A DNA stretch of 33,191 nt from Alphaproteobacteria bacterium (lineage in GTDB: Bacteria > Pseudomonadota > Alphaproteobacteria > Micavibrionales > Micavibrionaceae), in assembly GCA_023141075.1 (NCBI GenBank), contig JAGLKL010000001.1, positions 1-33,191 on the forward strand, written 5' to 3'. The notes beneath the pieces were generated by a model. That model was not told the origin of the DNA. It did not search any database and saw nothing but the letters and a program-made list of their open reading frames with translations. This document shows positions 2,089 to 30,139 of the stretch, piece by piece. A program made the translations under genes and the position numbers. Position 1 is the stretch's first letter. Each line of letters starts with the position of its first letter.

Positions 2089-2682
2089 TTAATGCGATTT
2101 CTTTTCAGGATCGATCTTAATTTTTCTATACGACTCAGGATCAAATTGAAGGTCTGCCAAACTGTCAGGCAGTGGTACCGGGTAGTTTTTAACCAACGGA
2201 AAGGCAACAAAATAAGGCATGGCATTGTTCAGGAAAGCAAGCTGCTCAGGACCTACAGTTACTTTATTAAACTTCAATTCTGTAACTCTTGGTAGATTAA
2301 CATTTGTATTCGGATCGGGAAAAAATTCAACCCTGCAAATGAACGGCTCCATCCGGTATCCTCCAAAAGCATCTGTATGTGTGTACCACAACTTCATCGC
2401 GCCATCACGCTTGATCTTCATCTCGCTGACATAAAGTGAGTAAGGATAGGTAATATGGAGTTCCAGCAGTGTATGGCATATTCCATATTCAGCAGAAGCT
2501 TTAAAGGGTTTAAACAAAAACCACGTAGAATACGAAAAGAATAAAAGAATAATCGCCAGAAGCGAGCGCTTAATAAATTTTTTGCGTTGATGCTTTTTCT
2601 TTTTCTTAAGTTTTTCGGCGAGGCTAATTTTAGGCTCGTCTTCAATAATCGTCTGTTGTGCAATTTCTTTTTTCTGATCCAT
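2089..2682 (-). CDS. Hypothetical single-pass membrane protein encoded immediately downstream of dotO
   Basis: 197-aa ORF that starts 20 nt after the dotO stop. It has a Lys-rich N-terminus (KKKKKHQRKKFIKR), one hydrophobic helix (SLLAIILLFFSYSTWFLF) and a soluble domain of about 140 aa. No family recognised. Confidence 0.55.
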   Translation of the reverse strand: MDQKKEIAQQTIIEDEPKISLAEKLKKKKKHQRKKFIKRSLLAIILLFFSYSTWFLFKPFKASAEYGICHTLLELHITYPYSLYVSEMKIKRDGAMKLWYTHTDAFGGYRMEPFICRVEFFPDPNTNVNLPRVTELKFNKVTVGPEQLAFLNNAMPYFVAFPLVKNYPVPLPDSLADLQFDPESYRKIKIDPEKKSH

Positions 2683-2702
2683 TGTCTTAATAAGCCGGTT
2701 AA

Positions 2703-5700
2703 CTATGAGACACGTAATTTTATTCGCTTGGCGTCTTCATGTTCCTGAGACGCTTTACTTTCGATGACAAGTTCGTCAACAATTTTTGCAATCACACCAC
2801 TAATCATTGATTGCCGGGAATCTCCGTCTTCACTATTTGCCAAGACGCGGCGACGAATTTCGTTACGCGCACTACCGCCGGGATATTTCATTGCCAGCAT
2901 CTGCCGGGCCCGGGCTGCGCCCAATATCGAATAAAGACGGTTACGGATAGAGACGTCTTCAGCTGAAGTAGAGAACGCCCACAGCTCAATAGGACCGAGT
3001 GTGTTATAAATATGCTGCTCGTAACGTCCCGATGTCGAACCGATCACGACCAGTGCCGGTGCTCCGATTGATTTCGGACCGGTCAACTTATAACGCATAA
3101 CATGACGCGCAGTATTGGACAGACCAAAGCGCTCGACCACATCTTGTACGGCTTTATCGGAAATCGCCGTACCCAAAATCCAAACACCGGTTGCCAGATC
3201 AACCATGTCTTTATCAAAGTCGTCAATAAGCTGGGAGGTTAAAACGATTTGCACACCGCGTTTCCGTCCTTCACGCACGTCCCGGATAACCTGTGCACGC
3301 ACGGCCTTAGATTTACTGGTACGGTGAAACTCATCAAAGTTCATACGTTTTGGAGTCTCTGTAATATCCTGCAATCGCAATTCATGGTATTCGCGGAACT
3401 TCTCGGGGACATTTTGCAATGTATCGACACTCATCCACCACGAACGCACAAGAGCATGGCGTGCCAGCATGTACATAATAGACGTTTGCCGGTCAGCCGC
3501 TTCGTCCCCTTGTGGTGCCACGTCCATTAAATCCAGAGAACAGAGCCGTGTATCGGCAATATCAAACTGTGTTACCGAAGACAAAATAGGGTATTCACGA
3601 ATAGCTGAGGTAATCATCCTCTCAAATGCACCGACTACACTTTCCGCGCTTACACCCACCGAAGTTTCTTCGAGAAGCGTACGGATTTGTGGTCTCCTGG
3701 CAGCCGTAATCGAGTCGTTCAAAGTCGGTACAGCATGGCGCTGCGCCAGATTGGCTAAGTGCGGCTGGTCAAGTTCAAACATTTTATCAACAATATCCCA
3801 CCAGAATGGATCAAACGGCAAGTGGATATTAAATTTTTGGATGGCAGCATCAATCTCCGTTTCAAGACGAGGCAGGTAAGGACGCGCTTCGGCATTTGAC
3901 GACGCGTCATCACGCCAGCGATACATCTCATCAACTACGAGACCACAAAGCTGTTGCATACCGTCATAGGGCTTATCATAGCCTGGTGGTGTGGTAAGTA
4001 AGGTCATAAGCTCGACCAGAAAGCTACGCTCGTCAAGAAGCGGGTAGCGGCATCCAAGCTGTGTATCAAATGGGTTAATCGCATATTGGTGTGCCATTTG
4101 CAGGCGATAATAATTAGCAAGATATTGTTTGCTCAGGGGCAAGGCCTCCTTAATGAGGGAAATCAATCCGGAGGAAGAAGGGCCAATGTCAATCACCGCA
4201 ACATAAGGCAGGTTGCTCAAACCTGGTGTGATACAGGTTCCGAAATTAAGCGTGTTCAAAAGCACGGACTTACCACCGCCAGGTTGCGCAAAAATCAGGT
4301 CGAACCACGTCGTTGTCAAAGTTGTTCCTGTTTGATACGGCCATATTTTTCCGTCAGGTGTCCTGAAAATCATTGCCCCCGTTTCAAACGGACTGGACGG
4401 ACGCTGCCACGGCAACAGACGCATAATATCGATCATCGGTGCTATACCTGATGGTGCAGTGCCTCCGCAATGAATCCCCATTGCCGAAGACATGACACAA
4501 TCCAGAGGATCTCCAGAGTGTTCACTCACTTGGCAATAACCCCAACTCTCAAAAGACTGTAAAAGAACGGAAAGCTGATCCAGAATTTTTTCTTTTTCGT
4601 CAATTTTGCACCAGGTAGCAAAAGAAATACGGACTTTCACCACAGGTTCACTACGACCAAGCGCGACCAAGTTTTCCAGTGAATACTTAATAGGCTTGTT
4701 ACCGGCATTTGTCGGCCCCAGAATCGTTGCACCAAATGTCCTAAACGCAATAGCTGAAGCGCCCCCTCCTTCAATCAGAAAAGAAATACGGAATGGAATA
4801 TCGGCCTCAACAAGACGATTCAAAAATACCGGGAACGGAGTAGGATCCATAGGGCCAAGAGTCATATCCGCACCCGCCCATAGCAGATTGCCAATACGCA
4901 CGACGGATTTACCCAGAACTTTGGCATCAGCAGCGGTAATCTGATTAGGCAGGCTCGGCCATAAAATATCAGACATATCAACCGCACTTTGTGGTGCGCG
5001 CGGCGGAATAGGATCACCCGGCAGACAGGCACGCCATTTTTTGTTGGCCCGGTCGGGGAAGAGGTTACAGCGAATAGAATTCAAGGCCTCATGTACTTCA
5101 AGAAGCTGACATTCAATGTTCAACTCATCAAAAGCAGTCATCATCGCGCCAATAAAACTTTTATGCCGGGTTTTGAGCGGTTCCAGAACACCGTACGGAT
5201 ATTGTGACCCGGCTGCCGGAACCCAGTTTTTACCCTCTTCTTTCGCATTCTTACCTGCACGCTTAACTTCGCTTTTGGTCAGAGCCGACGGACGGGTCCA
5301 TAAAACAAAATATTGCTCTTCATGTGTGAGAAATTTTTCGAGGTGTGAAATTTTTTCTTCAAACAAATCATTCAGATCTATGCCGATCATCTCGGCGCTC
5401 TGACGGCTGGGTTTAAGCTGATCCTCCAGTACTTGTCTAATGCGCGAAGGGTCGCGCACAAAATATACTTGCATCGCGTGGCCAAGGCGATCAAAACGCG
5501 CCCCGATTTTAATGTTGGAGGTCTCAACAATATTTTTGTATTCTTCGTCACCAATAATCTGTTTACTGCCATAAACGCGCACATAAGACACTAAAGAGCC
5601 TTCTGTCGCAACAAGCGTTGTTTCATTTTGCGCAGTTTCCAAACGGATGAAAGAGGAGACGGTAAAGCGCATCGCTTTTTGAAATGGGGCTGTTAATTTA

Positions 5701-5714
5701 TCGATGAGTTTCAT
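2703..5714 (-). CDS. dotO: Dot/Icm T4BSS ATPase DotO/IcmB (TraU-like, VirB4-class)
   Basis: 1003 aa, close to the roughly 1000 aa of Legionella IcmB. Walker A FAQPGGGKSVLLNTLNF, followed by VAVIDIGPSSSG. Sits directly after the icmJ-like gene, as in known Dot/Icm loci. Confidence 0.9.
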   Translation of the reverse strand: MKLIDKLTAPFQKAMRFTVSSFIRLETAQNETTLVATEGSLVSYVRVYGSKQIIGDEEYKNIVETSNIKIGARFDRLGHAMQVYFVRDPSRIRQVLEDQLKPSRQSAEMIGIDLNDLFEEKISHLEKFLTHEEQYFVLWTRPSALTKSEVKRAGKNAKEEGKNWVPAAGSQYPYGVLEPLKTRHKSFIGAMMTAFDELNIECQLLEVHEALNSIRCNLFPDRANKKWRACLPGDPIPPRAPQSAVDMSDILWPSLPNQITAADAKVLGKSVVRIGNLLWAGADMTLGPMDPTPFPVFLNRLVEADIPFRISFLIEGGGASAIAFRTFGATILGPTNAGNKPIKYSLENLVALGRSEPVVKVRISFATWCKIDEKEKILDQLSVLLQSFESWGYCQVSEHSGDPLDCVMSSAMGIHCGGTAPSGIAPMIDIMRLLPWQRPSSPFETGAMIFRTPDGKIWPYQTGTTLTTTWFDLIFAQPGGGKSVLLNTLNFGTCITPGLSNLPYVAVIDIGPSSSGLISLIKEALPLSKQYLANYYRLQMAHQYAINPFDTQLGCRYPLLDERSFLVELMTLLTTPPGYDKPYDGMQQLCGLVVDEMYRWRDDASSNAEARPYLPRLETEIDAAIQKFNIHLPFDPFWWDIVDKMFELDQPHLANLAQRHAVPTLNDSITAARRPQIRTLLEETSVGVSAESVVGAFERMITSAIREYPILSSVTQFDIADTRLCSLDLMDVAPQGDEAADRQTSIMYMLARHALVRSWWMSVDTLQNVPEKFREYHELRLQDITETPKRMNFDEFHRTSKSKAVRAQVIRDVREGRKRGVQIVLTSQLIDDFDKDMVDLATGVWILGTAISDKAVQDVVERFGLSNTARHVMRYKLTGPKSIGAPALVVIGSTSGRYEQHIYNTLGPIELWAFSTSAEDVSIRNRLYSILGAARARQMLAMKYPGGSARNEIRRRVLANSEDGDSRQSMISGVIAKIVDELVIESKASQEHEDAKRIKLRVS

Positions 5715-6017: not shown

Positions 6018-6752
6018 TCAAGCCGTTTCTAAAACCTGATGATATATATCGAACCATTTTTGTGGTGTTTTACCGCCAAAAGGCCCATCTTTTGAACGCC
6101 AGTAAGCCAGAATCTGAGGAAACTGGTTAAACTCCAGATCCGCTTCTTTAATGATACGTCGGTCAAGCGGGAATAAACGCACGCCGGCTATTTTTTTGTC
6201 ACGGTTGTGATAATGGCGGTTTGTAAGATAATCCTGCAACACCATAGCCAGAATATACGGATCATCAGTACCGATACGTGTCCTAACTTCTTCACGGCGC
6301 TGCATGAGCGTATCAAGGGACTTACGTGCGGCATCGGCCATAGAACCCTGAGAAATACGTGCTACATATATCGCACGTGCAATATGGTGTAAATCAGCCT
6401 GTGATACTTCCGGGAGCCATAGTAAAACGCCGGATCGCATAACACTGACCTTATCAAGGTTGAAGCATTGGTGACAAAAAATGCAGGTTGTTTTCAGGTT
6501 ACCTTCTGACAGATCATTATGATCACCGTCTACGAAGAGAACTTCCTGATATTTTTTGGACTTAAAACCGCAGCACTGACATGTGTCATTGTCACGGGAG
6601 AAGATCTTTTGTTTCAATTCTTTGGTTAATATTTTACCTTCGGCAGAAACAGAAGAGGCGGAGCCAGATTTGCTGGCTCCGCTTTTTATTTGTCCGACTC
6701 CTAGGCGCTGCCTTGGGAGTCCTAGTGATATGGATAATAGTTCCACAGTCAC
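6018..6752 (-). CDS. dotN: DotN/IcmJ-like zinc-binding T4BSS protein
   Basis: 244 aa. The Cys pairs CQCCGF and CIFCHQC flank DGDHNDLSEGNL. The gene lies between icmD and icmB exactly as icmJ does in Legionella. Confidence 0.7.
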   Translation of the reverse strand: MTVELLSISLGLPRQRLGVGQIKSGASKSGSASSVSAEGKILTKELKQKIFSRDNDTCQCCGFKSKKYQEVLFVDGDHNDLSEGNLKTTCIFCHQCFNLDKVSVMRSGVLLWLPEVSQADLHHIARAIYVARISQGSMADAARKSLDTLMQRREEVRTRIGTDDPYILAMVLQDYLTNRHYHNRDKKIAGVRLFPLDRRIIKEADLEFNQFPQILAYWRSKDGPFGGKTPQKWFDIYHQVLETA

Positions 6753-6770: not shown

Positions 6771-7160
6771 TTAGATAGTACCGAAAGTTACAGAGCGAAG
6801 ATTCGCTGAAGAAGCACCTGAACCTGTGTCTGCAGTGTTCAGTGTTTCTGTCATAGCTTCGAGTAAGATCGGAAGACCGAACAACATACCACCTGCCATC
6901 AGGCGAATAGCGCCGTCTTTCAAAGGTGTTTGTGATGGGTTTTCAACGTGATCTTTAATTTTCATCACACCAAGAACAGCAAGAAGCAAACCAGCAAGGT
7001 ACGCAATAGCCGCGATCAAGCCAGGTAGAGATGCGATGGATGTGTTGATACTATTAGCAATGGAACCAAAGTTGTTAGCAGCATGTGCATTACCTGCCAG
7101 CATTCCAACGGTCATTGCCGCACCCATAGTGTAGTATGTAGTTTTTGATTTTTTGAACAT
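6771..7160 (-). CDS. dotP: IcmD/DotP small inner-membrane T4BSS protein
   Basis: 129 aa with signal-like N-terminus and the module SLPGLIAAIAYLAGLLLAVLGVMKIKDHVENPSQTPLKDGAIRLMAGGMLFGLPILLEA. Strong RBS GGAGG 6 nt upstream of the ATG. Synteny supports the call. Confidence 0.8.
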   Translation of the reverse strand: MFKKSKTTYYTMGAAMTVGMLAGNAHAANNFGSIANSINTSIASLPGLIAAIAYLAGLLLAVLGVMKIKDHVENPSQTPLKDGAIRLMAGGMLFGLPILLEAMTETLNTADTGSGASSANLRSVTFGTI

Positions 7161-7332: not shown

Positions 7333-8982
7333 TTACAGACCAAAGCTCACGCCAAAAGCTGTGATACCTAATGTTTCTTGGATAGAGTTAAGTAATGGCC
7401 CCATATTCACTGCTAACGCACCACCTATCAGGTGGGTCATACCGGCCATTGTCGAGGCATTTCCTTTACCTTCAGCAACGTCACGCATAATAAACAGGCC
7501 ACGCACGAAACTGATCATCCCTAAAACAATCAGGAACTGCAAAACAGCGGATATAACGTTGTGTATTGCCTCTATTTCTGCCGGAGCCATACCGCCTGTA
7601 AACTGCAGAGTAGCCCACGTATATGTGACTGGGCTGACAAACATCGACGAAGAAAACGCACGTAAAAGGGTAGATGCCGATAAAAGCATACCGCCAATGA
7701 CAAATGTTCCGAATGTTCCTATGCCTCCAGGACCACGCGCACCTTCCTGCGAGGACTTAATAAGTCTTGAAATACCGATCATAATAAAGATCGTACCAGC
7801 CATAAAGGAGAAGAAATTCAAGGCTACGTGCGCAGGTCCCATAATATCGAGCATGAAACAGCCCATAGCTTCATCAAGCGAGTTTGCCCCCAATCCACAA
7901 CCTGGTCCAATTGTCGAGTTAAACCCGGTATTGGTAGTAAACATAGTCACTCCCATAAGGATGGGAGTCAAGAAGGATGACTGAAGAACTGTTATTAGAT
8001 AAGGCAAGGAGAAGAAACAACCACCGGCCAGCAAGCGCATCACGCCTTCACTAACAGCTGTACGCGAAGGTTCGATTACATGATCTCTTATCTTCAAAAC
8101 ACCCCACACGCCCAATACCAGACCCATCAAATAAGATATGGAATTGAGGAAAACAGGCATGGCACTGGAAGTAAGCAAACTATTACAAATTACCGCGCCA
8201 AGAGTGTCTCCAAGCCCCAAGAATATACCCAGACACTCAAAATTAGATGTTTCCGTAGAATAAAGGAAACCGGTTCCGGCAAAGATAGCGGTAATTGTGC
8301 CCAAAAACCCCATACCCGTACCGAAAATGGTGGTATACATGGCGTCAAAGACAGTCGGCATAGCAAATAAGGCACCGGCCGTCAGATAGCGGATGACAGC
8401 GTCTTTCAACGGAACCCTGCTTGGATCTTCGACATGATCACGTGTTTTATACAAAGCCGATACCGATATCACTATACCGAGTAAATAACCGACAGCCGCG
8501 ACCAAGCCCGGCATTCCCTCGACGGAAGCCATGATTTGACCAAGTATGGAGTTGAAGGTTATTCCCACCCATGTTGTTAAGGTCATTGTACCGAGAAACG
8601 CCCAAAACGTTATGAAGGTGTGTGCATTGTCATTAGAAATCGGGTCAAAGTCCGTTTCTGCACCCGGGCCGTTAATGGTAACCCAAGCAGCTTCAAAAAT
8701 AATAGGTAGGCCAAACAGGGCACCGGCCAAAAGATAGCGTATCACAGGGACACTAAGTGGCGTCTGTGTCGGACTATTAACATGATCAACTGTTTTAAAA
8801 ATAGCTATTACTGCGACAATCAGGCCACCTAAATAACATAAAGCAGCAAGAAGACCGGGAAGAGAAGCGGCACTGTCAACTATATTTTGACCAACATCGT
8901 CAACCGTCTGAGCATAACCAAGCTTAGAGAAGAGTAGAACAAAAAACACTCCAAATATAAGTGAATATAGGCTCTTTTTCAT
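7333..8982 (-). CDS. IcmC/DotE-like polytopic membrane protein made of five tandem IcmD/IcmC-type modules
   Basis: Start chosen at the ATG at 8982 (MKKSLYSLIFGVFFVLLFSKLGYA, a signal-like sequence) because AAGGAG lies 9 nt upstream. Three modules closely resemble IcmD (KTVDHVNSPTQTPL, KTRDHVEDPSRVPL, KIRDHVIEPSRTAV, each between two hydrophobic helices). Two further modules are more divergent. Confidence 0.75.
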   Translation of the reverse strand: MKKSLYSLIFGVFFVLLFSKLGYAQTVDDVGQNIVDSAASLPGLLAALCYLGGLIVAVIAIFKTVDHVNSPTQTPLSVPVIRYLLAGALFGLPIIFEAAWVTINGPGAETDFDPISNDNAHTFITFWAFLGTMTLTTWVGITFNSILGQIMASVEGMPGLVAAVGYLLGIVISVSALYKTRDHVEDPSRVPLKDAVIRYLTAGALFAMPTVFDAMYTTIFGTGMGFLGTITAIFAGTGFLYSTETSNFECLGIFLGLGDTLGAVICNSLLTSSAMPVFLNSISYLMGLVLGVWGVLKIRDHVIEPSRTAVSEGVMRLLAGGCFFSLPYLITVLQSSFLTPILMGVTMFTTNTGFNSTIGPGCGLGANSLDEAMGCFMLDIMGPAHVALNFFSFMAGTIFIMIGISRLIKSSQEGARGPGGIGTFGTFVIGGMLLSASTLLRAFSSSMFVSPVTYTWATLQFTGGMAPAEIEAIHNVISAVLQFLIVLGMISFVRGLFIMRDVAEGKGNASTMAGMTHLIGGALAVNMGPLLNSIQETLGITAFGVSFGL

Positions 8983-9272
8983 TAGTATATATCTCCTTAC
9001 GCAATCGCTCTGCATTAATTACAACATATTTAGTGAGCATCACGCAAATTTAAAACACATTCACCGCATTGTGTAACAATCATACCGGAATTTAGTTAAA
9101 ATTTTATCAATAATTATAGGTTTCCTAACCATATTCCTCTATGCGGTCAGTACAAAAAGCACAGCCACATGATCATTGCCTAATATAATTATCTCATTTT
9201 CTATCTATAGCCGGAATTATCCATCTATTTATTTAAGGTATGTTTTACGCCAATTTACTTAATAATTCAATA

Positions 9273-10604: not shown

Positions 10605-10683
10605 AAGAATTATCCCATTTTTAGACTTTGCTTTTTACAAATTTTAAAAAAGGGGACACGAAATCAACCGGAACCCGTTTTTG

Positions 10684-11946: not shown

Positions 11947-12973
11947 CTAACAAATCCTCACGCGCAGTAAGATGGGCACGAACCATACGTCCCCGATCAG
12001 ATAGTAAAATCACAGGTGTTTCTTCCAGAGCGTATATTTTTGTTCCATCCGCAGATGTTACAGAGCTATCCCAGCCTGGTGACAGAAGTGTTAAAGGTGT
12101 TCTTACATAAGTCATACCATTATACACATACGCAGTTGTGCGCCCGTCAACACCAAAGACATCCAGTATATTAGCTCCATCGGGGACAACACCGCCCAAA
12201 GCAATAGACATATCCGGATCGCCGGAGGACAGAGTAACACCATTACTTATCAGTGGCATTTTGGCACCCGGACCCCGTTTGGGGACAACAGCATCAAAGC
12301 GGTAATGAACAACATCTCTTCCTGTTTCAAAAGTCATAATAACAGGAGCATCCAGACCGACCAGACGCATGGAAACATTCCCATGAGCAAATTTACTCTT
12401 CGGTGAAAGTCTCAACATGTGTGTTACTTCATAAACAGTTGATTCTTCAACGTTAAAATCACCAACCCAGCTAATATCTTCGATTGGCCATGGTGCGCCG
12501 GTGGAATCTAAAATGCTAAGTGTTGTCACATATCCGAATGCAAGCTTTACGATCAAAGGAGCAACGCCCGGATCAAGAGAAATATTTTGCACAACCGACT
12601 CAGGACGCGGATACGGGTGAACAGGAAGCTCAGTCGATTCCACGGTTCGGTCATAACGCTCAAGCACGGATCTGATTTCCGAAGGTTTCAAAGGCATGAG
12701 CCGTTTTAAAGCCTGATCAAAAGCCTCTTTTCTGAAAGAGTCTTCGAGCTCGTCAGCAGACTTCTCAAATTCAAACCCGTTATCATCGAAACCGAATGTA
12801 TCGGCTTCTAATGTATCATCGGGCAGGACGTCTATTTTCGGCATGTCAGAGGTTTCAGGTTGAGCCAGTGCAGGGACAGCTAACGCAACTGAACATGCCA
12901 ACATAAGGCCGAAAGTCACAATTTTAGTGTCAAAGGTTGACCTCATTGTGTAAAAAAAGTTTGTATAATGCAT
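11939..12973 (-). CDS. dotH: DotH/IcmK outer-membrane-associated T4BSS core protein
   Basis: 344 aa with a signal-like N-terminus (LMLACSVALAVPALAQ). Conserved core: PYPRPESVVQNISLDPGVAPLIVKLAFGYVTTLSILDSTGAPWPIEDISWVG. The start is uncertain; an alternative ATG lies at 12946. Confidence 0.8.
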   Translation of the reverse strand: MHYTNFFYTMRSTFDTKIVTFGLMLACSVALAVPALAQPETSDMPKIDVLPDDTLEADTFGFDDNGFEFEKSADELEDSFRKEAFDQALKRLMPLKPSEIRSVLERYDRTVESTELPVHPYPRPESVVQNISLDPGVAPLIVKLAFGYVTTLSILDSTGAPWPIEDISWVGDFNVEESTVYEVTHMLRLSPKSKFAHGNVSMRLVGLDAPVIMTFETGRDVVHYRFDAVVPKRGPGAKMPLISNGVTLSSGDPDMSIALGGVVPDGANILDVFGVDGRTTAYVYNGMTYVRTPLTLLSPGWDSSVTSADGTKIYALEETPVILLSDRGRMVRAHLTAREDLLDE

Positions 12974-20177: not shown

Positions 20178-20198
20178 TGAGAAAACGAGGTATTTATT

Positions 20199-22103: not shown

Positions 22104-22116
22104 AGCGCTATTTTAT

Positions 22117-23754
22117 CTAGTCTTCTTCTTTTTGCACAGAGAGGCCATAAGGCGTCTCGCTTAGTACATATTCCGGAGCGCGTTTCAGCCCTTTCTTAAA
22201 CAAGATATCAACAGCATTTTTATACGTTCCGCTAATAAAGACATCATAATCGAGGGCATATTCTTTTGTTGCTTTCCAAGCCAAGGGCACGCGTTCTTTT
22301 GCACTCCACTCTTCGATTATCGTCTGCAAGCCGGATTTGCTTTTGGCTTGCCAGATACGGATTTTGTTACTCGGCTTTTCGAGGTAATGAGAGACTTGCT
22401 CCGGCGCTTCTACCACATCTTCTTTAGACACATCAGAAGAAATAGTGATTTGATCCTCGGCATTGCCCATAGAAGAATAATCCGGGATAATTTCGTTTAC
22501 TTGCGAAACGGAGGCTTCCTCTTCCTCAACTAAAGGGACGGAAAGCGGAGCGCTGGTGGCCTCTCCGTCGCTTACCGTTTTCATAGCGGAATCCTTAGAA
22601 TCAGACAGCACTATCTCATCCGTAGCACTTTTTTCAAATGGATTAGCCTCTTCCGGTTTCATCAAATCATCAACCAAAGCAGAAACTGTATTATCATTAT
22701 CTGCTATTTCACTGCCGGTAGCTGTTTTGTCGAGGACAACAGAATTGGTTGTTGTGGGAGCAGAAAGAATACTTTCGCTGCTCACTATTACTTCCGGCAT
22801 TTCTTCTGCATCGATAATTTCCTCAATAAAAAAAGCCTCTCCTTCTATCGAAGGGGTCTTTTCCTCAAGAGCGGCGCTCATAGCCTGTTCAGGCGAAACG
22901 GCAAGTTCTCTCGCGCCGTCTTCTCCAAGCTCTGCTACGGCAAGTTTTTTTATAGGCTCCGAAAATTCATTTTTTTTTTGCGCCGCCTGAGGGGCAGCGG
23001 CTTGTTCAGAATTTTCAGTGTCAGTCTTCAGGACTACCTTTTTATCATGTATGACGGCCTTTATCCCAAGCGGCGAAAGCGCATCATTTAGAACCTCATT
23101 CCACGGTTTTCCGCCCTCCCATGATACACGAGCCCCAAGATTGACACTGTCACTGAAAGAATAGGCATACTTCGCCGGAACAATCTGGCTAAGCGCCAAG
23201 GCCAAAGGTATTTTCATACCAAAGCCTTCTATAACCTCATAAGAAACACCTACACTGACCGGCGGCGAATGCATTTGTACATCAACCTGCCGGTCTTCTT
23301 CCTCAGATGCTGATCCATCATCTTTCACCGATCCATCATCTTTCAGAGGATAGGGGTCAAGGACAAGAGAGCCGACTTTGTTTTGAGGCGCTTCGGTCTC
23401 AACAGCCTCTTCTTTCTTATCTGAGAAATTGATTGTTTTGATTTCGACAGATTTTTCACCATCCCGGTCTGTATCTTGCTCAAGTATTTTAACCTCAATG
23501 GGAGGTTCATCCTCAAAAACAATTTCTTCAAGCCGGATGTCATAATATTCCGGCAACGCACTATCGAGAGCCACGTCCGAAGACATGGCCTCATCATCAA
23601 CTATGAAAACATCCGGACCCGCATCTTCCACATAATCGGGCTCGTCAGGCGGCGTCCATTTAAACTCCGCATGTGCCGGGTTGTTTGTAAATGTACCAAA
23701 AGCAAAAATTGAAATACATGTCGAAAGAAGTAAGCGGTTATATTTTGAACACAT
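22117..23754 (-). CDS. Secreted acidic protein with C-terminal TcpQ/PilL-like domain
   Basis: Start placed at ATG 23754 (MCSKYNRLLLSTCISIFAFGTFTNNPAHA, a signal peptide) rather than the tracked 23835. The C-terminus IRIWQAKSKSGLQTIIEEWSAKERVPLAWKATKEYALDYDVFISGTYKNAVDILF fits the TcpQ-type pattern as I remember it. An internal domain reads GFGMKIPLALALSQIVPAKYAYSFSDSVNLGARVSWEGGKPWNEVLNDAL. Confidence 0.55.
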   Translation of the reverse strand: MCSKYNRLLLSTCISIFAFGTFTNNPAHAEFKWTPPDEPDYVEDAGPDVFIVDDEAMSSDVALDSALPEYYDIRLEEIVFEDEPPIEVKILEQDTDRDGEKSVEIKTINFSDKKEEAVETEAPQNKVGSLVLDPYPLKDDGSVKDDGSASEEEDRQVDVQMHSPPVSVGVSYEVIEGFGMKIPLALALSQIVPAKYAYSFSDSVNLGARVSWEGGKPWNEVLNDALSPLGIKAVIHDKKVVLKTDTENSEQAAAPQAAQKKNEFSEPIKKLAVAELGEDGARELAVSPEQAMSAALEEKTPSIEGEAFFIEEIIDAEEMPEVIVSSESILSAPTTTNSVVLDKTATGSEIADNDNTVSALVDDLMKPEEANPFEKSATDEIVLSDSKDSAMKTVSDGEATSAPLSVPLVEEEEASVSQVNEIIPDYSSMGNAEDQITISSDVSKEDVVEAPEQVSHYLEKPSNKIRIWQAKSKSGLQTIIEEWSAKERVPLAWKATKEYALDYDVFISGTYKNAVDILFKKGLKRAPEYVLSETPYGLSVQKEED

Positions 23755-23956: not shown

Positions 23957-24259
23957 TTATTGTCCGTAATCGACAAATTCATGCAATCTAAAGCCAATGG
24001 TGCTCGGACGGGAACTCCCGATGAGCCAGCAACGAAGTGCCCTTATAGCGGAAGGGAAGGTCAGACCTTTATTTTCAAGAAAATTAAAAACGTAGAAAAC
24101 CATAATGGAGAGAATAATGGTCGACCATCTAAGATATAAAAGCCACACGGGAATCAGGAAAGCCACGCGTGCATCAAAACTCATAAACCGGATGGTACGC
24201 ATGGTATCACGCCAGTGCCAGTTCAGTTTGGCTTCAATGTTTTCAATTTCTTTAACCAT
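23957..24259 (-). CDS. icmT: IcmT (TraK-like) small membrane T4BSS protein
   Basis: 100 aa. HWRDTMRTIRFMSFDARVAFLIPVWLLYLRW...FLENKGLTFPSAIRALRCWLIG matches the IcmT/TraK signature (WRDS.R..RF..D.RA.FP ... G.....L.R.L.G). Confidence 0.8.
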   Translation of the reverse strand: MVKEIENIEAKLNWHWRDTMRTIRFMSFDARVAFLIPVWLLYLRWSTIILSIMVFYVFNFLENKGLTFPSAIRALRCWLIGSSRPSTIGFRLHEFVDYGQ

Positions 24260-24316
24260 AAATCTTTATTACCTCAAAGCTTTGTTTTTACACCGCCTAA
24301 GGGCAGTATAATGCTG

Positions 24317-24343
24317 TAATTGTTAATGAAGCGTTAACAATTA
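24317..24343. promoter_or_regulatory. Perfect 10-bp inverted repeat TAATTGTTAA-N7-TTAACAATTA (operator-like)
   Basis: Read directly from the sequence. It lies 58-84 nt upstream of the icmT ATG and has no flanking T-run, so it is not terminator-like. Confidence 0.5.
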
Positions 24344-24383
24344 ATACAATCGGTTCTTAAGAATATCAAGGAAAGAAAAAAGA

Positions 24384-24402
24384 TTAGGTAGTGTAGTCAC
24401 GT
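24384..24402 (-). promoter_or_regulatory. Motif B copy 2 (minus strand: ACGTGACTACACTACCTAA)
   Basis: Exact 19-nt reverse complement of 13994-14012, 125 nt upstream of the icmT ATG on the coding strand. Confidence 0.75.
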
Positions 24403-24523
24403 ATTACGTACAATTCTTTTTCATTTTACAGAAAAAGAATCAATTTTCTGGCACGCAGGACATGGCACAGCATATTCAAGAGTCAAAAAAGATAATAATT
24501 TGCCTAGCGCAGAATGGATAAAA

Positions 24524-24545
24524 GCTGTGAGTTTAGACCCTGAGC
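24524..24545 (+). repeat. Motif C copy (GCTGTGAGTTTAGACCCTGAGC)
   Basis: Shares GTTTAGACCCT with the 13779 and 27835 copies. It is followed by the 12-bp palindrome CCGTAGCTACGG at 24550-24561. Confidence 0.75.
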
Positions 24546-24610
24546 ATAGCCGTAGCTACGGTGATAAAATTATGCGAAGATAATCAAGAAAATTCCTCAA
24601 GCAAAATGTA

Positions 24611-24636
24611 TTATTCTTAAGTGGAACTACTATAAT
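24611..24636 (+). repeat. Motif A copy (TTATTCTTAAGTGGAACTACTATAAT)
   Basis: Matches 2058-2087 and the reverse complement of 5991-6017. It lies 16 nt 3' of the dotB stop codon. Confidence 0.8.
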
Positions 24637-24638
24637 AT

Positions 24639-24655
24639 GTGACGGCACTACCTAA
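24639..24655 (+). repeat. Motif B-like copy 3 (GTGACGGCACTACCTAA)
   Basis: 15/17 identical to motif B and inverted relative to 24384-24402. Its last 4 nt overlap the dotB stop codon (CTA at 24652-24654). Confidence 0.7.
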
Positions 24656-25809
24656 GCACCCGTGCTCGAAGACAGCATCAAATAGGCTCGTCGGTCGACC
24701 AATCCGTCATCAAAAGCGAGGGCGGCGGATTTTTCCATGGTTCGCCCATATTGGGGAATAAAGCGCTGAATTTCGTTCGGCCATTTGGTAAAATGCATGT
24801 CCATGAGTTTCTCGCGCACCTCATCAGGAAACTTCATCCATTCGCGCACACCGCAACGTCCTCCGCCTATGCGCTGGACAAGGGCTTGTGTGACAATAAG
24901 GCGCAAGGTTTCCATCAAAGCAACGGCGCGTTCTTCACGTTCATCCATTTCATAAGTCGAGAGCATCCGTTGTACTGTGTTAGCAACACCAAGCGTGTGA
25001 GTAGTTGTATACACGGCATGCCCGGTTTGTGCCGCTTCAATCGCGGCGTTGATGGTTTCACGGTCACGAGCCTCTCCGACCAAGATGATTTCAGGCTTAC
25101 GGCGTAAGGCATTACGTACGCCATGCGCAAAATCAGGCAGGTGACGCGGAATTTCTGTTTGCGAGACCAGCGAGCGCGGACTTTGGATCGTGTCATACAC
25201 ATACTCGATAGGCGCTTCGTAAGTCAGCATTTTACCGCAGCCGCGCGGACGTTCCAATAGCATGCGGTTGCCTGCTGCCAGCAACGTGGTTTTACCGGAG
25301 CCTGTCGGGCCTGTTATAATAACAAGTCCTTGGCGCGGTGCCCAATTATCACAGATTTCTTCCTCAATATTCAGATCTTTCATGGTCGGCGGTTCACTGG
25401 GAAGACTACGCATAGTGATCTGTGCACCATCGCGCCCTTTGACCAAAATCGCTGTGATATTCACACGAAAGCGAATACGGACATAACGGTCGGGGCGAAG
25501 TTCATAGGAAACGTCTAAGTCTCTACCTGAAGCCAAACGAGCCCGCGCCTCAGCGCCATAGAGCCTTTCCAAAAATACGGACATATCAGCGGCATCTAAT
25601 TTACGGAAGGTCGCCGGATAAAGATCACCGCCGATTTCACTATAAACCGGGCGCTCGGATTGGATCGTAATATCAGACGCGTTTTGTTTGACACACCAGA
25701 GAAGAAACTCATCGACGTCATCGGTTGTAAATCTTTGCGGTTCATTTGGCCAGGTTTGGGCGCTAGAATCCTCGGCTTTTACAAGACTTACCGGCTTGCG
25801 GGCTTCCAT
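24652..25809 (-). CDS. dotB: DotB, PilT/VirB11-class hexameric secretion ATPase
   Basis: 385 aa. Walker A GPTGSGKTT, Walker B-type ILVGEARD, the N-terminal DITIQSERPVYSEIGG pattern, and HAVYTTTHT. The start overlaps the dotC 3' end by 22 nt. Confidence 0.9.
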   Translation of the reverse strand: MEARKPVSLVKAEDSSAQTWPNEPQRFTTDDVDEFLLWCVKQNASDITIQSERPVYSEIGGDLYPATFRKLDAADMSVFLERLYGAEARARLASGRDLDVSYELRPDRYVRIRFRVNITAILVKGRDGAQITMRSLPSEPPTMKDLNIEEEICDNWAPRQGLVIITGPTGSGKTTLLAAGNRMLLERPRGCGKMLTYEAPIEYVYDTIQSPRSLVSQTEIPRHLPDFAHGVRNALRRKPEIILVGEARDRETINAAIEAAQTGHAVYTTTHTLGVANTVQRMLSTYEMDEREERAVALMETLRLIVTQALVQRIGGGRCGVREWMKFPDEVREKLMDMHFTKWPNEIQRFIPQYGRTMEKSAALAFDDGLVDRRAYLMLSSSTGA

Positions 25810-26663
25810 GTATCTGCTCCAGTCATCAGCTCAGGAACACCAGTGATTTGGACGGCGCGATCGCCAATACGCATTTCATCGCCGCCACCGGTAATACCGC
25901 GATCAACTTGTAGTGCATAGGGTGGGGAAATCATACCTTGCGCAAGTAACATCTTGTATCTGATCATACCTTGATAATCAGATTCTAAACGCGCAAGATC
26001 ATCTTTAAATATATCATCGGCTTGTTCATAACCAAATTTCCATCCTTTACGCACATGCTGTCCCCATATTCTGCGTTCCTCAGCATCACGTGGGGTCAGG
26101 ATATCAGGTGGCGGCATCACTTCACCCCATTCGCGTTCCAGATACTGACGCCATATTCTAGGAGCCGAAACGATGCGTGCGTTGCGGATAATATTATAAA
26201 TTTTATCGGAGACAGCCGCAGTTTGTCCGTCTACATCAATAAGCATCGCATTCATTGATTCGGTAATAATCGGAGGCTCGATCATAAAACCGGATGGTGC
26301 AGCCATCAAAAGCTGGGCAAAATCATAAACACGGTCAAGGTAGCGTGTTTTAGTGCTAAGTTCATCGCGGATTTCATAAGTGCGCTTGGCCAAACCGCCA
26401 CGTGCTCCGAAAGATGTTGCTGCTTCCTTAATAGCATCCATACGAATATCTATGGGCAGGCTGTCATCACTCTCGTCAACGCCTCCGATGGGTTCATATT
26501 TTATCAGAGCGCGAAGCTCTACAGGCTCTTCTTCTGAAGTCGTCAAAGGCGCATCGTTATCGGTTGGAAGTTTATACTTTCCGGCATAAGAATACCCGGG
26601 TGCGCCGACGATAAACGACAATCCGATAAGTGAGCAAATGCCCGATGTCAGAAGAAAACGCAT
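25788..26663 (-). CDS. dotC: DotC (TraI-like) outer-membrane-associated T4BSS core protein
   Basis: 291 aa with a signal-like N-terminus. Contains FMIEPPIITESMNAMLIDVDGQTA, GWKFGYEQADDIF, ESDYQGMIRYKMLLAQGMISPP. It sits between dotD and dotB. No canonical lipobox was seen. Confidence 0.8.
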   Translation of the reverse strand: MRFLLTSGICSLIGLSFIVGAPGYSYAGKYKLPTDNDAPLTTSEEEPVELRALIKYEPIGGVDESDDSLPIDIRMDAIKEAATSFGARGGLAKRTYEIRDELSTKTRYLDRVYDFAQLLMAAPSGFMIEPPIITESMNAMLIDVDGQTAAVSDKIYNIIRNARIVSAPRIWRQYLEREWGEVMPPPDILTPRDAEERRIWGQHVRKGWKFGYEQADDIFKDDLARLESDYQGMIRYKMLLAQGMISPPYALQVDRGITGGGDEMRIGDRAVQITGVPELMTGADTWKPASR

Positions 26664-26689: not shown

Positions 26690-27202
26690 TTAACCACCAA
26701 CCCCGGCATTGGGAACATAGTAAATTTCAACCATACGGGATTTGGCATCGACTTTTACATCACCGCGATTACCAAGCTGTAGGCCGATGTCACGCAAAAC
26801 ATCAACAACTCGGGAGTTTTCTGCATCAACAGAAACAACAACAGGAACGGAAGGTTCATTACCCAAGACAAGGAAACTGTATCCGGCACGATCAGTCAAA
26901 GTTTTGGCAATCGGTTCTATCGGACCGACCCAGTTTACAGTGATTGTACGGCGCAACTCTTGCGGAACATTGCCGAGAGGGGACATTGAAGTGGCTGGTG
27001 TGCGGGCTTGTTCAACTGCAGCCAGCGTTTCCAGAGCCAATGATGCACGGTCAGCAGATTCTGCCAGCATTACAGAAACACTGTCAGGAGAAGCCACAAT
27101 TTGCGGACTACCTGCACTAAACGCATTTGATGTGTCGAGAGAACAACCAGAAATTAACGCCAAACCACATAACAATGGTAAGATAAGAAAGTTACGAGAC
27201 AT
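26690..27202 (-). CDS. dotD: DotD (TraH-like) lipoprotein with secretin-N0-like domain
   Basis: 170 aa. Lipobox LALISGC at residues 14-20. C-terminal TITVNWVGPIEPIAKTLTDRAGYSFLVLGNEPSVPVVVSVDAENSRVVDVLRDIGLQLG. Confidence 0.85.
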   Translation of the reverse strand: MSRNFLILPLLCGLALISGCSLDTSNAFSAGSPQIVASPDSVSVMLAESADRASLALETLAAVEQARTPATSMSPLGNVPQELRRTITVNWVGPIEPIAKTLTDRAGYSFLVLGNEPSVPVVVSVDAENSRVVDVLRDIGLQLGNRGDVKVDAKSRMVEIYYVPNAGVGG

Positions 27203-27406: not shown

Positions 27407-27820
27407 TCAACGCCGAGTTTTCAACAGCCCATATCTCTTCATCTCATTAATAACACGTTTTTTGTATTTTTTTCCATATTCGGGGGTTCGCGAATGATAA
27501 TGTTCAAGTGCTTTTGCTAAATCATGGGTCTCATTTAAGTGCTGACGCAAAATCCAGGCAGCAACATCAACATTGGCACAAGTGTCGTCACGAACCACTT
27601 GTTTGGCCTTTTCTTCGCTGATTCCCCATTGCCGAGCCAGTTCCGGTAGCCAGATTGTATTAATTTGCATAGGACCTAGATCATAGCTTCCATTCGTGTT
27701 AGCGACTTCCTGCCCGGATTTTCCGCCTTCAGCGCGGTATATCCCGGCCAGTAAGGCAGGGGGGACATCGTGTGCTTGAGCGGCCATCATAATGCATGCA
27801 GCCAGAATTTTTGTTCCCAT
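27407..27820 (-). CDS. Small SLT-domain lytic transglycosylase (VirB1/IagB-class)
   Basis: 137 aa with a signal-like N-terminus. Contains IYRAEGG (candidate catalytic Glu), YDLGPMQIN, ANVDVAAWIL. Confidence 0.75.
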   Translation of the reverse strand: MGTKILAACIMMAAQAHDVPPALLAGIYRAEGGKSGQEVANTNGSYDLGPMQINTIWLPELARQWGISEEKAKQVVRDDTCANVDVAAWILRQHLNETHDLAKALEHYHSRTPEYGKKYKKRVINEMKRYGLLKTRR

Positions 27821-27834
27821 GAGATCACTTCCTA

Positions 27835-27924: not shown

Positions 27925-29199
27925 TCAATCAGAAGAGAAGAAAGACATAGGGCTTCCGGCATTACCGGAAGACTTTTCTTTCTCATCTTCCCCATCTTCC
28001 TCATCCTTTTCATCAGCGGGCGGGGCAGATTGTCCTTGTTGAGGTTCTTCATCAACAGGTGCGGAAGAAGCCGGTCTTGTCGCACTTAACATCGCGTCCT
28101 CTCCTCCAGAAGGCTCTTTATCAACAGGTGCAGAAGAAGTCGGTCTTGTCGCGCTTAACATCGCTGCCTCTTCGCCGGAAGGCTCTTTATCCTCTTTTTC
28201 TTCCTCATTGCCTGAAAAGAATCCCATGGGGCTGGATTTTGTTGAGGTTTGTTGAGGTTTTTCTTCTTCAGCCTCTTTCTGAATATCCGGCACAGTCGCA
28301 TTTTCTTCTGTTGCAGCTTCGGCGAGCGGTTTATCCGGCGCGGAAGCCACATCTACAAGCCCGGATCCATCAGTAAATAAGTTCTCGATCTTGGCAATAT
28401 CCTCATCTGTGAAATGATTTGGCATAATATGTTTGCCCAAAACGGTAAGCATGCTCAGGCGTTTTTCAAACAACAACCAGATGTTTTCAATCTGGGTCTT
28501 GTTATCTTCCTCAGCGCGTACATCTTCATCCAGCGCCATTATACGGTTTTTCTCGCGAATGTGACACGAACAATAAAGCGGGATAAGACTACTCAAAATA
28601 AGGAGTTCACTCGATTTTTGTTCCGCTACTGATAGCTCCGTTCCCATTAATGCATGAGTAATTTCAGAGGCTTTTGTGCGCAGCTTTTCTGACACGTCTT
28701 GTATCATCCGCGCTTCATCCTGCCCATAGGAGAAATCTGCTACGGCATCAACAAGCGGTACATAATATTTAAGGTAAACAAGATTAGCCACAGTTCGCGA
28801 TAATGGCGAAAGGCCGCGGATATTCTCCGGGAATACTCCTTCCAGACGCTCCATAGGAATGTAGTTCTCGGAAAATGTTAAGAGCTTGTCAACCGAGCCG
28901 ACTGTACGCTTAAGCTCTGCTTGAGTAGGCAAGCTTCCTGAACGTTTATAATGGGCGGCGATAATGTGACAGGACAGCGTCGCAAGGTTAAGGCGTACTG
29001 ATACGTCTTTTTCTTCTTCTTCAATCAAATCCAGAAGGCCGCGAATATCATCGGCGTTATCGATAGTCTGACGCAACAAACGGGTCACATCTTCAATGAC
29101 CTTTTCTTCCGGCTCGTTCAGGGCAACCTGAATGACACCCTCAATAACAGGCAATCCGATATCATGCATTATTACGGTTAGAAGTTCTGCGCGCTTCAT
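27925..29199 (-). CDS. Hypothetical soluble protein with a folded N-terminal region of about 290 aa and a disordered acidic repeat-bearing C-terminus (candidate T4BSS substrate or adaptor)
   Basis: 424 aa with no hydrophobic helix. The C-terminal third is E/D/S/P-rich and carries two 23-aa repeats (DKEPSGEEAAMLSATRPTSSAPV and DKEPSGGEDAMLSATRPASSAPV). It also has two SPMGFFS / SPMSFFS motifs, the second at the extreme C-terminus. Confidence 0.6.
   Translation of the reverse strand: MKRAELLTVIMHDIGLPVIEGVIQVALNEPEEKVIEDVTRLLRQTIDNADDIRGLLDLIEEEEKDVSVRLNLATLSCHIIAAHYKRSGSLPTQAELKRTVGSVDKLLTFSENYIPMERLEGVFPENIRGLSPLSRTVANLVYLKYYVPLVDAVADFSYGQDEARMIQDVSEKLRTKASEITHALMGTELSVAEQKSSELLILSSLIPLYCSCHIREKNRIMALDEDVRAEEDNKTQIENIWLLFEKRLSMLTVLGKHIMPNHFTDEDIAKIENLFTDGSGLVDVASAPDKPLAEAATEENATVPDIQKEAEEEKPQQTSTKSSPMGFFSGNEEEKEDKEPSGEEAAMLSATRPTSSAPVDKEPSGGEDAMLSATRPASSAPVDEEPQQGQSAPPADEKDEEDGEDEKEKSSGNAGSPMSFFSSD
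28051..28188. repeat. Two tandem copies of a 69-bp coding repeat
   Basis: 28051-28119 and 28120-28188 align with few mismatches (ATCAACAGGTGCRGAAGAAGYCGGTCTTGTCGCRCTTAACATCGC...GGCTCTTT). They lie in frame within the 424-aa ORF. Confidence 0.9.
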
Positions 29200-29245
29200 T
29201 TGCGTATTCCCATTTCTTCAAAATAATCTATAAACACCCAGCGAT

Positions 29246-30139
29246 TTAAGAGCGCACTCCCAGATCTGCAATCAGACCTTTAAGATCTTTGGGCATACCG
29301 CGGATAATCTTCACTTTGCCATCTTTTCCGCGATAGGCAATAAGCGGGGTAACGCTCAGTTTCCATGATTGCATAACGGACAAATTGCGTTGTATGCCTT
29401 GTTTACTGATCTCAGGAGAAGCCGGTAAGGCTTCTTTATCGCCTTCAAGATAACGCCAGAACAAATCTACGGGAGCAGGCGCCGCTAACATATAAGCTGC
29501 CTGTGCCTGTGTTTCGTCACGAAAACCGACGGGAATTATACGCACTTGTACCTTGCCGCTTTCAATATAAGGTTTAAGCGCAACCATCATATTGTAGCAA
29601 TGAGAGCATTGTATATCGATAAAACTGTAAAACAGTGGTGTACCGGCTTGTCCCACGGGCAGCCAGTTACTATTTTCCAGATCAAAATAAAGCTGTTCGG
29701 AAGGAGTTTTGAACTCATATCTATCTGCTTTACCCGCTTCTTGTACATGAGTGGGCATCGGGGGCACATCAGCGGCCAACGAGTCAAGCAATTCCCCACT
29801 TTGTTCGCGCAAACGCCTTACCTGATTAACGGTCACGGCTTTGCCCTTAACATCAAACAAAATGCCGCTAAGAAAGCTGCCATTTGGCAAAACATAGAAA
29901 TACTGTTCCTGCCCGTTTTTAATAGCAATCCATCCGTCAACCCCGTTATCTTTTCCCAAAAAGCGGATTTGTGCGCCCTCATTAGCCAGATTTTGTATCG
30001 GATCCGGCATTTTCGGCAGCAAAGTATCGTTGCTATTTTGTGCAAAGACAGGATTCCCGGCAAAAGACAAGATTGCTATTCCGGCGCAAAGGGACAGGAA
30101 TTTTCTAAAAAGTCTGTAAAGCATAATTCTGTAAGTCAT
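29246..30139 (-). CDS. Periplasmic thioredoxin-fold thiol:disulfide interchange protein, DsbC/DsbG-like
   Basis: 297 aa. Signal peptide (LSLCAGIAILSFAGNPVFAQ), an N-terminal domain, then FIDIQCSHCYNM (CxxC active site) and a C-terminal TPLIAYRGKDGKVKIIRGMP (cis-Pro loop region). GAGG lies 9 nt upstream of the ATG. Confidence 0.75.
   Translation of the reverse strand: MTYRIMLYRLFRKFLSLCAGIAILSFAGNPVFAQNSNDTLLPKMPDPIQNLANEGAQIRFLGKDNGVDGWIAIKNGQEQYFYVLPNGSFLSGILFDVKGKAVTVNQVRRLREQSGELLDSLAADVPPMPTHVQEAGKADRYEFKTPSEQLYFDLENSNWLPVGQAGTPLFYSFIDIQCSHCYNMMVALKPYIESGKVQVRIIPVGFRDETQAQAAYMLAAPAPVDLFWRYLEGDKEALPASPEISKQGIQRNLSVMQSWKLSVTPLIAYRGKDGKVKIIRGMPKDLKGLIADLGVRS

Follow-up and report, generated by a model that had tools for sequence, protein, structure and literature searches.

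A vertically inherited chromosomal type IVB secretion locus with putative IcmX-fold paralogues in Micavibrio-like alphaproteobacteria

Type IVB secretion systems (T4BSSs) are known from IncI-type plasmids and from intracellular pathogens of eukaryotic cells. The dotI-to-dotO gene order of Legionella region II is well established, and in the annotated IncI1 plasmid R64 the order is traH-I-J-K, nuc, sog, traL-M-N-O-P-Q-R-S-T-U-V-W-X-Y, then trbA-B-C and nikAB. Here, we examined a 33,191-nt stretch of DNA (contig JAGLKL010000001.1 of assembly GCA_023141075.1; hereafter the window) from a member of the Micavibrionaceae, in which a sequence-only reading had proposed a compact T4BSS island with an IncI-like gene order and many expected components missing. 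Our interpretation, to which we assign a probability of about 70%, is that the window contains the principal gene cluster of a chromosomal, vertically transmitted T4BSS of the MPF_I class from an uncultured Micavibrio-like source, that its parts are partly encoded elsewhere, and that it serves in contact-dependent delivery.

The six-frame listing and translation of open reading frames (ORFs) revealed 22 consecutive genes spanning positions 2089-30139, with dotD-dotC-dotB-icmT and dotI-dotH-dotG-dotF-icmC-icmD-icmJ-icmB carried on the minus strand as judged by profiles and by BLAST to R64. The features, including the two edge genes, were as follows:

993-2033: tas, aldo/keto reductase, locus edge
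2089-2682, minus: orf197, 197-aa single-pass membrane protein with two invariant cysteines, adjoining icmB
2703-5714, minus: IcmB/DotO/TraU, VirB4-class ATPase, 1003 aa (BLASTP to R64 TraU)
6018-6752, minus: IcmJ/DotN/TraT, cysteine-rich coupling-complex subunit (NF038221 103 bits, cut-off 100; R64 TraT E 4e-6)
6771-7160, minus: IcmD/DotP/TraR-type small membrane protein, 129 aa, a VirB2-like module (position and weak similarity)
7333-9015, minus: "icmC", 560-aa polytopic IcmD/IcmC-type fusion (NF033883 TraQ E 3.6e-15, residues 432-551)
9273-10604, minus: DotF/IcmG/TraP-like bitopic protein, a weak assignment (NF038218 E 0.0018 at the C-terminus alone; cluster position)
10684-11946, minus: DotG/IcmE/TraO, short form with VirB10-like C-terminus (NF033900 E 1.7e-41, 142 bits, C-terminal part; TraO E 4e-17)
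11939-12973, minus: DotH/IcmK/TraN, outer-membrane core component (PF12293 240 bits)
13079-13732, minus: DotI/IcmL/TraM, VirB8-like (PF11393 213 bits; NF038072 195 bits)
14173-15738, plus: putative IcmX/TraW-fold paralogue 1, class A
15839-17284, plus: putative IcmX/TraW-fold paralogue 2, class A
17287-18780, plus: putative IcmX/TraW-fold paralogue 3, class B (AlphaFold model against PDB)
18816-20177, plus: putative IcmX/TraW-fold paralogue 4, class B (AlphaFold model against PDB; BLASTP to a Roseomonas TraW-family protein)
20199-22103, plus: putative IcmX/TraW-fold paralogue 5, class C, extended at the N-terminus by ~200 extra aa
22117-23835, minus: periplasmic protein with TcpQ-like C-terminal domain (PF10671 25 bits)
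23957-24259, minus: IcmT/TraK (NF038220 79 bits, cut-off 40)
24652-25809, minus: DotB/TraJ, PilT-like ATPase (TIGR02524 382 bits; T2SSE 122 bits; R64 TraJ E 4e-61)
25788-26663, minus: DotC/TraI lipoprotein (PF16932 265 bits)
26690-27202, minus: DotD/TraH lipoprotein (PF16816 119 bits; NF033882 109 bits, below the curated cut-off of 140)
27407-27820, minus: TrbN/VirB1-like lytic transglycosylase (SLT Pfam; PRK13888 TrbN E 1e-28)
27925-29199, minus: orf424, lineage-specific soluble acidic protein, 424 aa
29246-30139, minus: DsbG/DsbC-like periplasmic thiol:disulfide interchange protein, 297 aa (NF008657 DsbG 118 bits, cut-off 124)
30364-31704: FIST protein, locus edge

The gene blocks and Dot/Icm assignments of the sequence-only reading were backed by the profiles and R64 BLAST, its edge genes tas and FIST were recovered by profile search, and the combined evidence places the system in the MPF_I class of T4BSSs. 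Found in the window were a TraU/DotO ATPase; the DotC, DotD, DotH, and DotG core; DotI, IcmT, DotB, and IcmJ; and TraQ/TraR proteins. The outer-membrane core is full (DotC, DotD, DotH, and DotG plus a probable DotF), while DotI and IcmT represent the inner-membrane scaffold and ATPase receptors and IcmB/DotO and DotB the ATPases. DotB scored below the curated TIGR02524 cut-off (463 bits), yet above its score with the TraJ model (252 bits). IcmB was 25% identical to R64 TraU across 957 aa (BLASTP, E 4e-83) and matched 3782 plasmid records, with 37-42% identity to the IcmB proteins of alphaproteobacterial plasmids. Zero matches to IcmB were obtained in Pfam-A and NCBIfam; profile-based annotation pipelines would overlook this signature ATPase, which may be a reason that the locus went unnoticed. 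The DotF-like C-terminus matched the protein at the TraP position of a Roseomonas plasmid at E 0.002 (BLASTP), a similarity that reached 2e-8 in relatives (tblastn), and the DotG orthologues of relatives have a TrbI Pfam match.

When compared with R64, traH-I-J-K was found to correspond to dotD-C-B-icmT and traM-N-O-P-Q-R-(S)-T-U to dotI-H-G-F-icmC-D-J-B in order and orientation, such that the IncI1 order given in the sequence-only reading was right and the collinearity with R64 covers both blocks (traH-K and traM-U). Common to the two loci are also a gene of ~200 aa after the VirB4-like ATPase and a thioredoxin-fold accessory protein. The window differs in having no NikAB relaxase, oriT, Sog primase, exclusion gene, or thin-pilus genes; in carrying five diverged opposite-strand paralogues between the two blocks, whereas R64 has a single traW; in that traX, traY, and trbA/trbC lie outside its cluster; and in being chromosomal and vertically inherited. 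With Legionella and Coxiella it has DotB, C, D, G, H, I, N, and O, a probable DotF, IcmT, DotE/DotP, and, as proposed below, the IcmX fold in common, as well as a chromosomal and non-conjugative nature. The contrast with Legionella drawn in the sequence-only reading was overstated, as the published region II order dotI-H-G-F-dotE-dotP-dotN-dotO (locus tags Lpp0515-0520) is the same as that of the window. Thus, the IncI-like trait is the joining of dotDCB-icmT to the block, not the internal order. Differences from Legionella include this joining, a DotG of 420 aa compared with roughly 1000, three to five IcmX-like paralogues compared with one, and a host that is alphaproteobacterial and outside the Legionellales. 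The T4BSSs of alphaproteobacterial megaplasmids (Roseomonas mucosa pSKB0092-2, Bosea pBSY19_1, Methylorubrum, and Rhizobium) provided the closest annotated IcmB relatives at the 37-42% identity given above, and likewise have a DsbG-like protein, a transglycosylase, and a domain related to the 572-aa TcpQ-like protein. Unlike the window, these plasmids encode one TraW, an evident DotA/TraY (402 bits), and, within the cluster, DotM and DotL; the Roseomonas plasmid, of type MOBP, is mobilizable.

The genomic context was examined for signs of acquisition. GC content was 0.446 within the locus and 0.451 in 14 kb of flanks, and the tetranucleotide correlation of locus with flanks (0.94) was similar to that between the two locus halves (0.92). 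No tRNA, integrase, transposase, or relaxase was detected in the window by ORF profile scans, a tRNA scan, or six-frame translation, in agreement, as to the last three, with the sequence-only reading; downstream are htpX-like, parB, and parA genes together with further chromosomal genes. A scan for IcmB among GTDB species representatives returned 57 loci, all from metagenome-assembled genomes (MAGs) of marine, groundwater, and sludge origin labeled Micavibrio sp., Alphaproteobacteria, or 'Pseudobdellovibrionaceae' (the family formerly used for Micavibrio at NCBI), with IcmB at 67-91% identity. The order of DotI through IcmB, orf197, and tas was kept across these loci, with orf197 abutting icmB in 53 of 57 and tas next in 34 of 57. 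As composition matches the flanks and synteny of the locus and its neighbor tas extends over dozens of species-level genomes, the earlier description of an island was not supported; the intact state of all ORFs and the IcmB identity across the 57 genomes point to long-term purifying selection in the chromosome. The locus is a chromosomally inherited T4BSS common to the whole Micavibrio-like lineage. In a few divergent genomes, icmB-orf197 stood alone amid housekeeping genes (PBP1A, dnaB, pyrF, and trpFBA), and inspection of the icmB neighbors in these relatives identified housekeeping genes throughout with no hidden T4BSS genes. In this lineage, then, T4BSS genes may lie dispersed, and absence from the cluster does not equal absence from the genome.

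These data also bear on whether the locus might be a conjugative element or its decaying remnant, such as an IncI-like integrative and conjugative element or plasmid integrated in the chromosome. The gene order match to R64, the plasmid location of the closest annotated IcmB relatives, and the membership of a coupling protein found in one relative (see below) in the TrbC family used by IncI plasmids would be in keeping with such an origin. Counter to this, neither a relaxase (MOB, NikB) nor an oriT protein was found, integrase, transposase, and tRNA searches were likewise negative, composition showed no shift, the flanking genes are conserved across species, and the ORFs are intact with IcmB conserved as described; we consider a conjugative element or remnant to be highly improbable.

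An operon of five plus-strand paralogues with 31-40% mutual identity occupies the region between dotI and the icmT block. At least 707 proteins belong to their family, none of which is named or has a Pfam domain. Among 123 sequences, the C-terminal ~100 residues were highly conserved and five cysteines were invariant or near-invariant, including a CxxC pair behind the signal sequence and three more. Sequence searches with the paralogues against Pfam, NCBIfam, PDB (single sequence and profile), and plasmids (tblastn) were empty, and NF033888 conj_TraW and PF28212 were unmatched by 40 family members at E <= 10, with no precomputed match; thus, the paralogues were identified through fold comparison alone. 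The AlphaFold model of paralogue 3 (123 sequences, pLDDT 82.3, pTM 0.66) had 9ngy_AP1 as its sole significant PDB match (E 4.9e-5, probability 1.00, 249 columns), with the runner-up at E 1.5. The same chain was the top match, at a suggestive probability of 0.90, of the paralogue 4 model (40 sequences, pLDDT 66). Entry 9ngy is the Legionella DotA-IcmX protochannel; since DotA is chain FP1 (1048 aa), chain AP1 (417 residues) is IcmX. The paralogue 3 model has a signal peptide, an N-terminal helix of 83 residues, a mixed middle domain, and a C-terminal helix of 61 residues, in agreement with the published IcmX architecture of signal peptide, long N-terminal helix, extended domain, and long C-terminal helix. 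A link to TraW was provided by a TraW-family protein of the Roseomonas plasmid, which matched the TraW model (E 2e-11), R64 TraW (E 3e-4), and paralogue 4 (E 0.011; BLASTP). The region of paralogue 4 concerned is the one paired to TraW by hhalign (E 0.04-0.06), and includes three cysteines conserved in both families. A search with R64 TraW gave only close enterobacterial relatives, such that little profile power was gained. IcmX has been described as the least conserved Dot/Icm protein, and a genuine TraW profile likewise missed IcmX in a sequence search of the PDB; the silence of the sequence searches is therefore expected. On the basis of the models, the five paralogues are very probably diverged members of the IcmX/TraW (VirB5-like) family. 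The sequence-only reading would have been at odds with a conventional IcmX among its uncharacterized ORFs; the paralogues appear to have the IcmX fold, yet in a non-conventional form.

Comparison with relatives revealed that the paralogue count varies from three to five. Relatives L008 and L071 have five in the order and sizes of the window, and these correspond one-to-one, as orthologues, to those of the window (47-62% identity on the diagonal versus 30-40% off it), while L068 and L070 have three. A neighbor-joining tree resolved three ancestral classes, A (paralogues 1 and 2), B (paralogues 3 and 4), and C (paralogue 5, with the N-terminal extension); classes A and B were each duplicated once in the five-gene clade, while C remained single. 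That the order is fixed, the genes orthologous, and the termini conserved speaks for non-redundant structural roles. Under another explanation, the paralogues would be effectors, toxins, or pore-formers that are secreted and diversifying and have no more in common with IcmX than an all-helical fold, since Legionella is reported to release IcmX with a link to pore formation and the paralogues are fast-evolving and variable in number. However, each class is one-to-one orthologous with a fixed order and position, the near-invariance of the C-terminus and five cysteines is typical of an assembly interface, and the cluster has no canonical single-copy IcmX to fill the structural role; an effector function was thus viewed as very unlikely. 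Returning to a structural role as IcmX-like subunits, Legionella IcmX is a homopentamer, and the 2+2+1 class pattern invites, without proving, a heteropentamer: a sum of five is expected if an A2B2C pentamer became a ring of five different subunits. The joint proposal that the T4BSS central cap is such an IcmX-fold hetero-oligomer (from A2B2C to five different subunits) and that the machine is what epibiotic predators such as Micavibrio use for contact-dependent attack or feeding is tentative, and we regard it as doubtful when taken as a whole.

Two observations were made at the border of the paralogue array. In every relative examined, flgK-flgL (flagellar hook-junction) lies directly 3' of the class-C paralogue on the same strand (L008 14902-18517; L068 13310-16976; L070 13350-16965; L071 13284-16899; L069 18939-21113), while the window is without these genes at this position; either co-regulation or chance neighborhood may account for the adjacency. 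In addition, paralogue 5 and the TcpQ-like gene converge with 13 nt separating their stop codons (22103-22117), which leaves no space for a terminator hairpin.

The components reported as missing were searched for in the window and beyond. DotA/TraY, DotL/TrbC, DotM/TrbA, and NikB were not found among the window ORFs (NCBIfam) or in its six-frame translation, as the sequence-only reading had stated for DotA, DotL, and DotM, and all four were also not found in 16 kb of additional flank or within 10 kb on either side of icmB in the 57 genomes; the flanks free of DotA, DotL, and DotM amount to 2 + 16 kb. The DotA, DotM, and TraW models scored 402, 120, and 44 bits on Roseomonas plasmid proteins, such that, for DotA and DotM, insufficient model sensitivity does not explain the absence. 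A DotC scan of metagenome contigs identified relative L077 (DotC 71% and DotB 86% identical), in which the cluster continues past the TcpQ-like gene with DotM (NF033890 180 bits; PF23127 DotM_C 172 bits), then a gene of 186 aa, and lastly a 1016-aa coupling protein of the TrbC/DotL type (NF041447 TrbC 388 bits; 42% identical to the coupling protein of the Bosea plasmid). In Legionella, dotM-dotL stand between icmT and dotI, which is the same position as that of the L077 pair. The lineage's system therefore includes a coupling complex, a finding that fits the retained IcmJ/DotN, and the DotM and DotL/TrbC-type coupling protein of the window's genome are most likely encoded elsewhere in that genome. 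Of the two possibilities left by the sequence-only reading, namely that the parts are encoded elsewhere or that novel genes substitute for them, the first is thus favored for the coupling proteins, while the second has lost ground because the five paralogues appear to be IcmX-fold and the 297-aa protein DsbG-like. The product of the 186-aa gene between dotM and dotL of L077 (16229-16789) is membrane-anchored, and dotL is followed by a 307-aa protein (19680-20603) with a hydrophobic N-terminal stretch; both are without a family match.

For the adaptors and accessory subunits, IcmS/IcmW/LvgA, IcmQ/R, DotU/IcmF, DotK, DotJ, and IcmV were unmatched among the scanned window proteins (NCBIfam; orf424 and the flanking genes lay outside the scan). 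The library was confirmed to hold IcmW, IcmV, and DotJ models, and absence of the other adaptors means the lack of any match; the sole DotJ-model signal was the expected cross-match on DotI. Most of the Legionella adaptors listed as missing are also absent from IncI systems, and the R64 annotation is likewise without IcmS/W/LvgA, IcmQ/R, DotU/IcmF, DotJ, DotK, and IcmV.

The "icmC" product was found to have an unusual composition. Residues 13-121, 154-230, and 276-350 of this 560-aa protein form three modules that are 40-46% identical to the adjacent 129-aa IcmD (internal repeats matching IcmD at E 1e-19 to 1e-23), and these are joined by one weaker module and a C-terminal IcmC/DotE/TraQ module. 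IcmD itself has weak matches to TraQ and TrbC/VirB2 profiles, and the orthologues of the fusion in relatives are 541-740 aa. By its sequence, the protein is a tandem fusion of IcmD/IcmC-type modules, a make-up that fits the published homology of TraQ and TraR and their indirect link to VirB2.

An alternative is that the T4BSS is a reduced or variant form without DotA and, in the window's genome, without a coupling protein, in which the fused IcmD/IcmC protein and multiple IcmX-like proteins replace the DotA channel; such a machine might export periplasmic substrates like Bordetella Ptl, act mainly as an adhesion or contact organelle, or serve as an uptake conduit like ComB. The negative searches for DotA, DotL, and DotM and the unusual expansion of VirB2-like modules and IcmX-like proteins are in its favor, and there are known type IV secretion systems (T4SSs) without a VirD4-type protein. 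On the other hand, DotM and a DotL-type coupling protein are present inside the L077 cluster, the DotL partner IcmJ/DotN is retained, T4BSS genes are scattered among housekeeping genes in divergent relatives, and the profile matches that rank best for the 560-aa protein leave out DotA/TraY; we therefore judge the DotA-less form to be unlikely. As a direct candidate for a DotA/VirB6 substitute the 560-aa protein was set aside, as its best matches among R64, Roseomonas, and Bosea proteins, all weak, did not include DotA/TraY and a PDB match was absent. Also rejected as DotA was a 703-aa protein of relative L069 (16815-18926), which lacks transmembrane segments as well as any similarity to DotA. 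This protein, inserted after the TcpQ-like gene in one complete relative, is acidic and has an aromatic C-terminus ending in F.

Taken as a delivery machine with parts encoded elsewhere, the system would assemble as in Legionella and R64. The IcmX-like proteins would make up the machine's central cap or tip in the periplasm, probably by mixed oligomerization, and the DsbG-like enzyme may oxidize the cysteines that are invariant among them. Protein substrates would be fed to the channel by DotM and a DotL/TrbC-type coupling ATPase, both encoded elsewhere, and a DotA/VirB6-type channel protein is assumed to be present elsewhere in the genome. The system would then serve contact-dependent delivery into target cells, not conjugation. 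Intact genes, conservation in 57 genomes, chromosomal context, and no DNA-processing genes together argue for a long-maintained protein-delivery machine as opposed to conjugation. Cultured Micavibrio are obligate epibiotic predators of bacteria. The target cell may be a prey bacterium or a eukaryote; the X-T4SS of Xanthomonas and Lysobacter, a chromosomal T4SS used against bacteria on contact, is a functional analogy only, as it differs in being a VirB/D4 system of the MPF_T class.

Several observations weigh against this interpretation. IcmX requires DotA in Legionella, and DotA/TraY (TIGR04346, BLAST) was not found in the window, the 57 loci, or the loci obtained from other relatives. DotL together with DotM was found in one relative only (L077). 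The TM-scores between the paralogues and IcmX are low (0.26-0.30), which is plausible given that a monomer model was compared with a chain from a pentamer, and the sequence-profile links of the paralogues are marginal (E 0.01-0.06). The lineage label of the MAGs is the submitters' own. Furthermore, the genome paper of M. aeruginosavorus ARL-13 reported neither a type III nor a type IV secretion system. Our literature searches identified no paper linking Micavibrio or Micavibrionales to a T4BSS.

What is new here is a core-genome T4BSS in predator-related alphaproteobacteria, an expanded and diverged family of putative IcmX members, and fused VirB2-like modules. The T4BSS represents a core chromosome component of an order-level Micavibrio-like lineage, and its conservation makes it a concrete candidate for how epibiotic predators kill and drain their prey. 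The DotA-IcmX protochannel was first described in 2025; three to five IcmX-fold paralogues would represent a natural experiment on this structure, asking whether a pentameric gate can use different subunits.

The remaining genes of the cluster were examined for their relationship to known systems. The TcpQ-like protein matched a 143-aa protein of the Roseomonas T4BSS plasmid through residues 183-262 (E 3e-12), and its PF10671 domain, at 25 bits in the window, was a clear match in orthologues. Its longest ORF is 572 aa, while the database gene call of 545 aa from the ATG at 23754 provides a signal peptide; position 23754 is the probable true start. The gene was found to be split in L069, L075, L076, L077, and L078 into two ORFs, one of ~480 aa and a second of 145-151 aa that carries the TcpQ domain. 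The transglycosylase is 43% identical to that of the Roseomonas T4BSS plasmid, and the DsbG-like protein matches its counterpart on that plasmid (E 6e-17) and is kept at the edge of the cluster in relatives. The TrbB protein of IncI plasmids likewise has a thioredoxin fold; the DsbG-like protein can be seen as its functional counterpart, with cysteine-rich periplasmic parts as its likely clients.

The orf197 family comprises 177 representative clusters, none with a named relative; orf197 sits at the R64 traV position, but its identity as TraV was unproven (BLASTP E 0.11; hhalign E 0.24-0.34). For orf424, 27 homologues were found, all unnamed proteins or MAG hypotheticals, among which the N-terminal ~290 aa are conserved and the acidic C-terminal tail is variable. 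All four of the homologue contigs examined lie in Micavibrio-type T4BSS clusters, while the gene is missing from the L078 cluster. No protein-family or credible PDB match was detected for orf424, and a PDB match to TraK at E 0.09 was taken as noise. It is possible that orf424 is a T4BSS substrate or accessory factor. A 69-nt tandem repeat (28042-28191; 2.2 copies, 87% matches) within the gene encodes a repeated 23-aa unit in the acidic tail.

tRNA and Rfam scans of the window were empty, and promoter and terminator scans were uninformative. The spacer between dotB and icmT (24260-24651), given as 392 nt in the sequence-only reading, is exactly this length and is without an ORF, tRNA, or Rfam match. 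By comparison, this spacer is 70-91 nt in relatives, and L072 has two additional ORFs (133 and 451 aa; 9147-10928) at the site, the longer with hydrophobic N-terminal stretches. The window spacer aligns to L072 over its final ~75 nt only, and the site looks like a variable insertion site.

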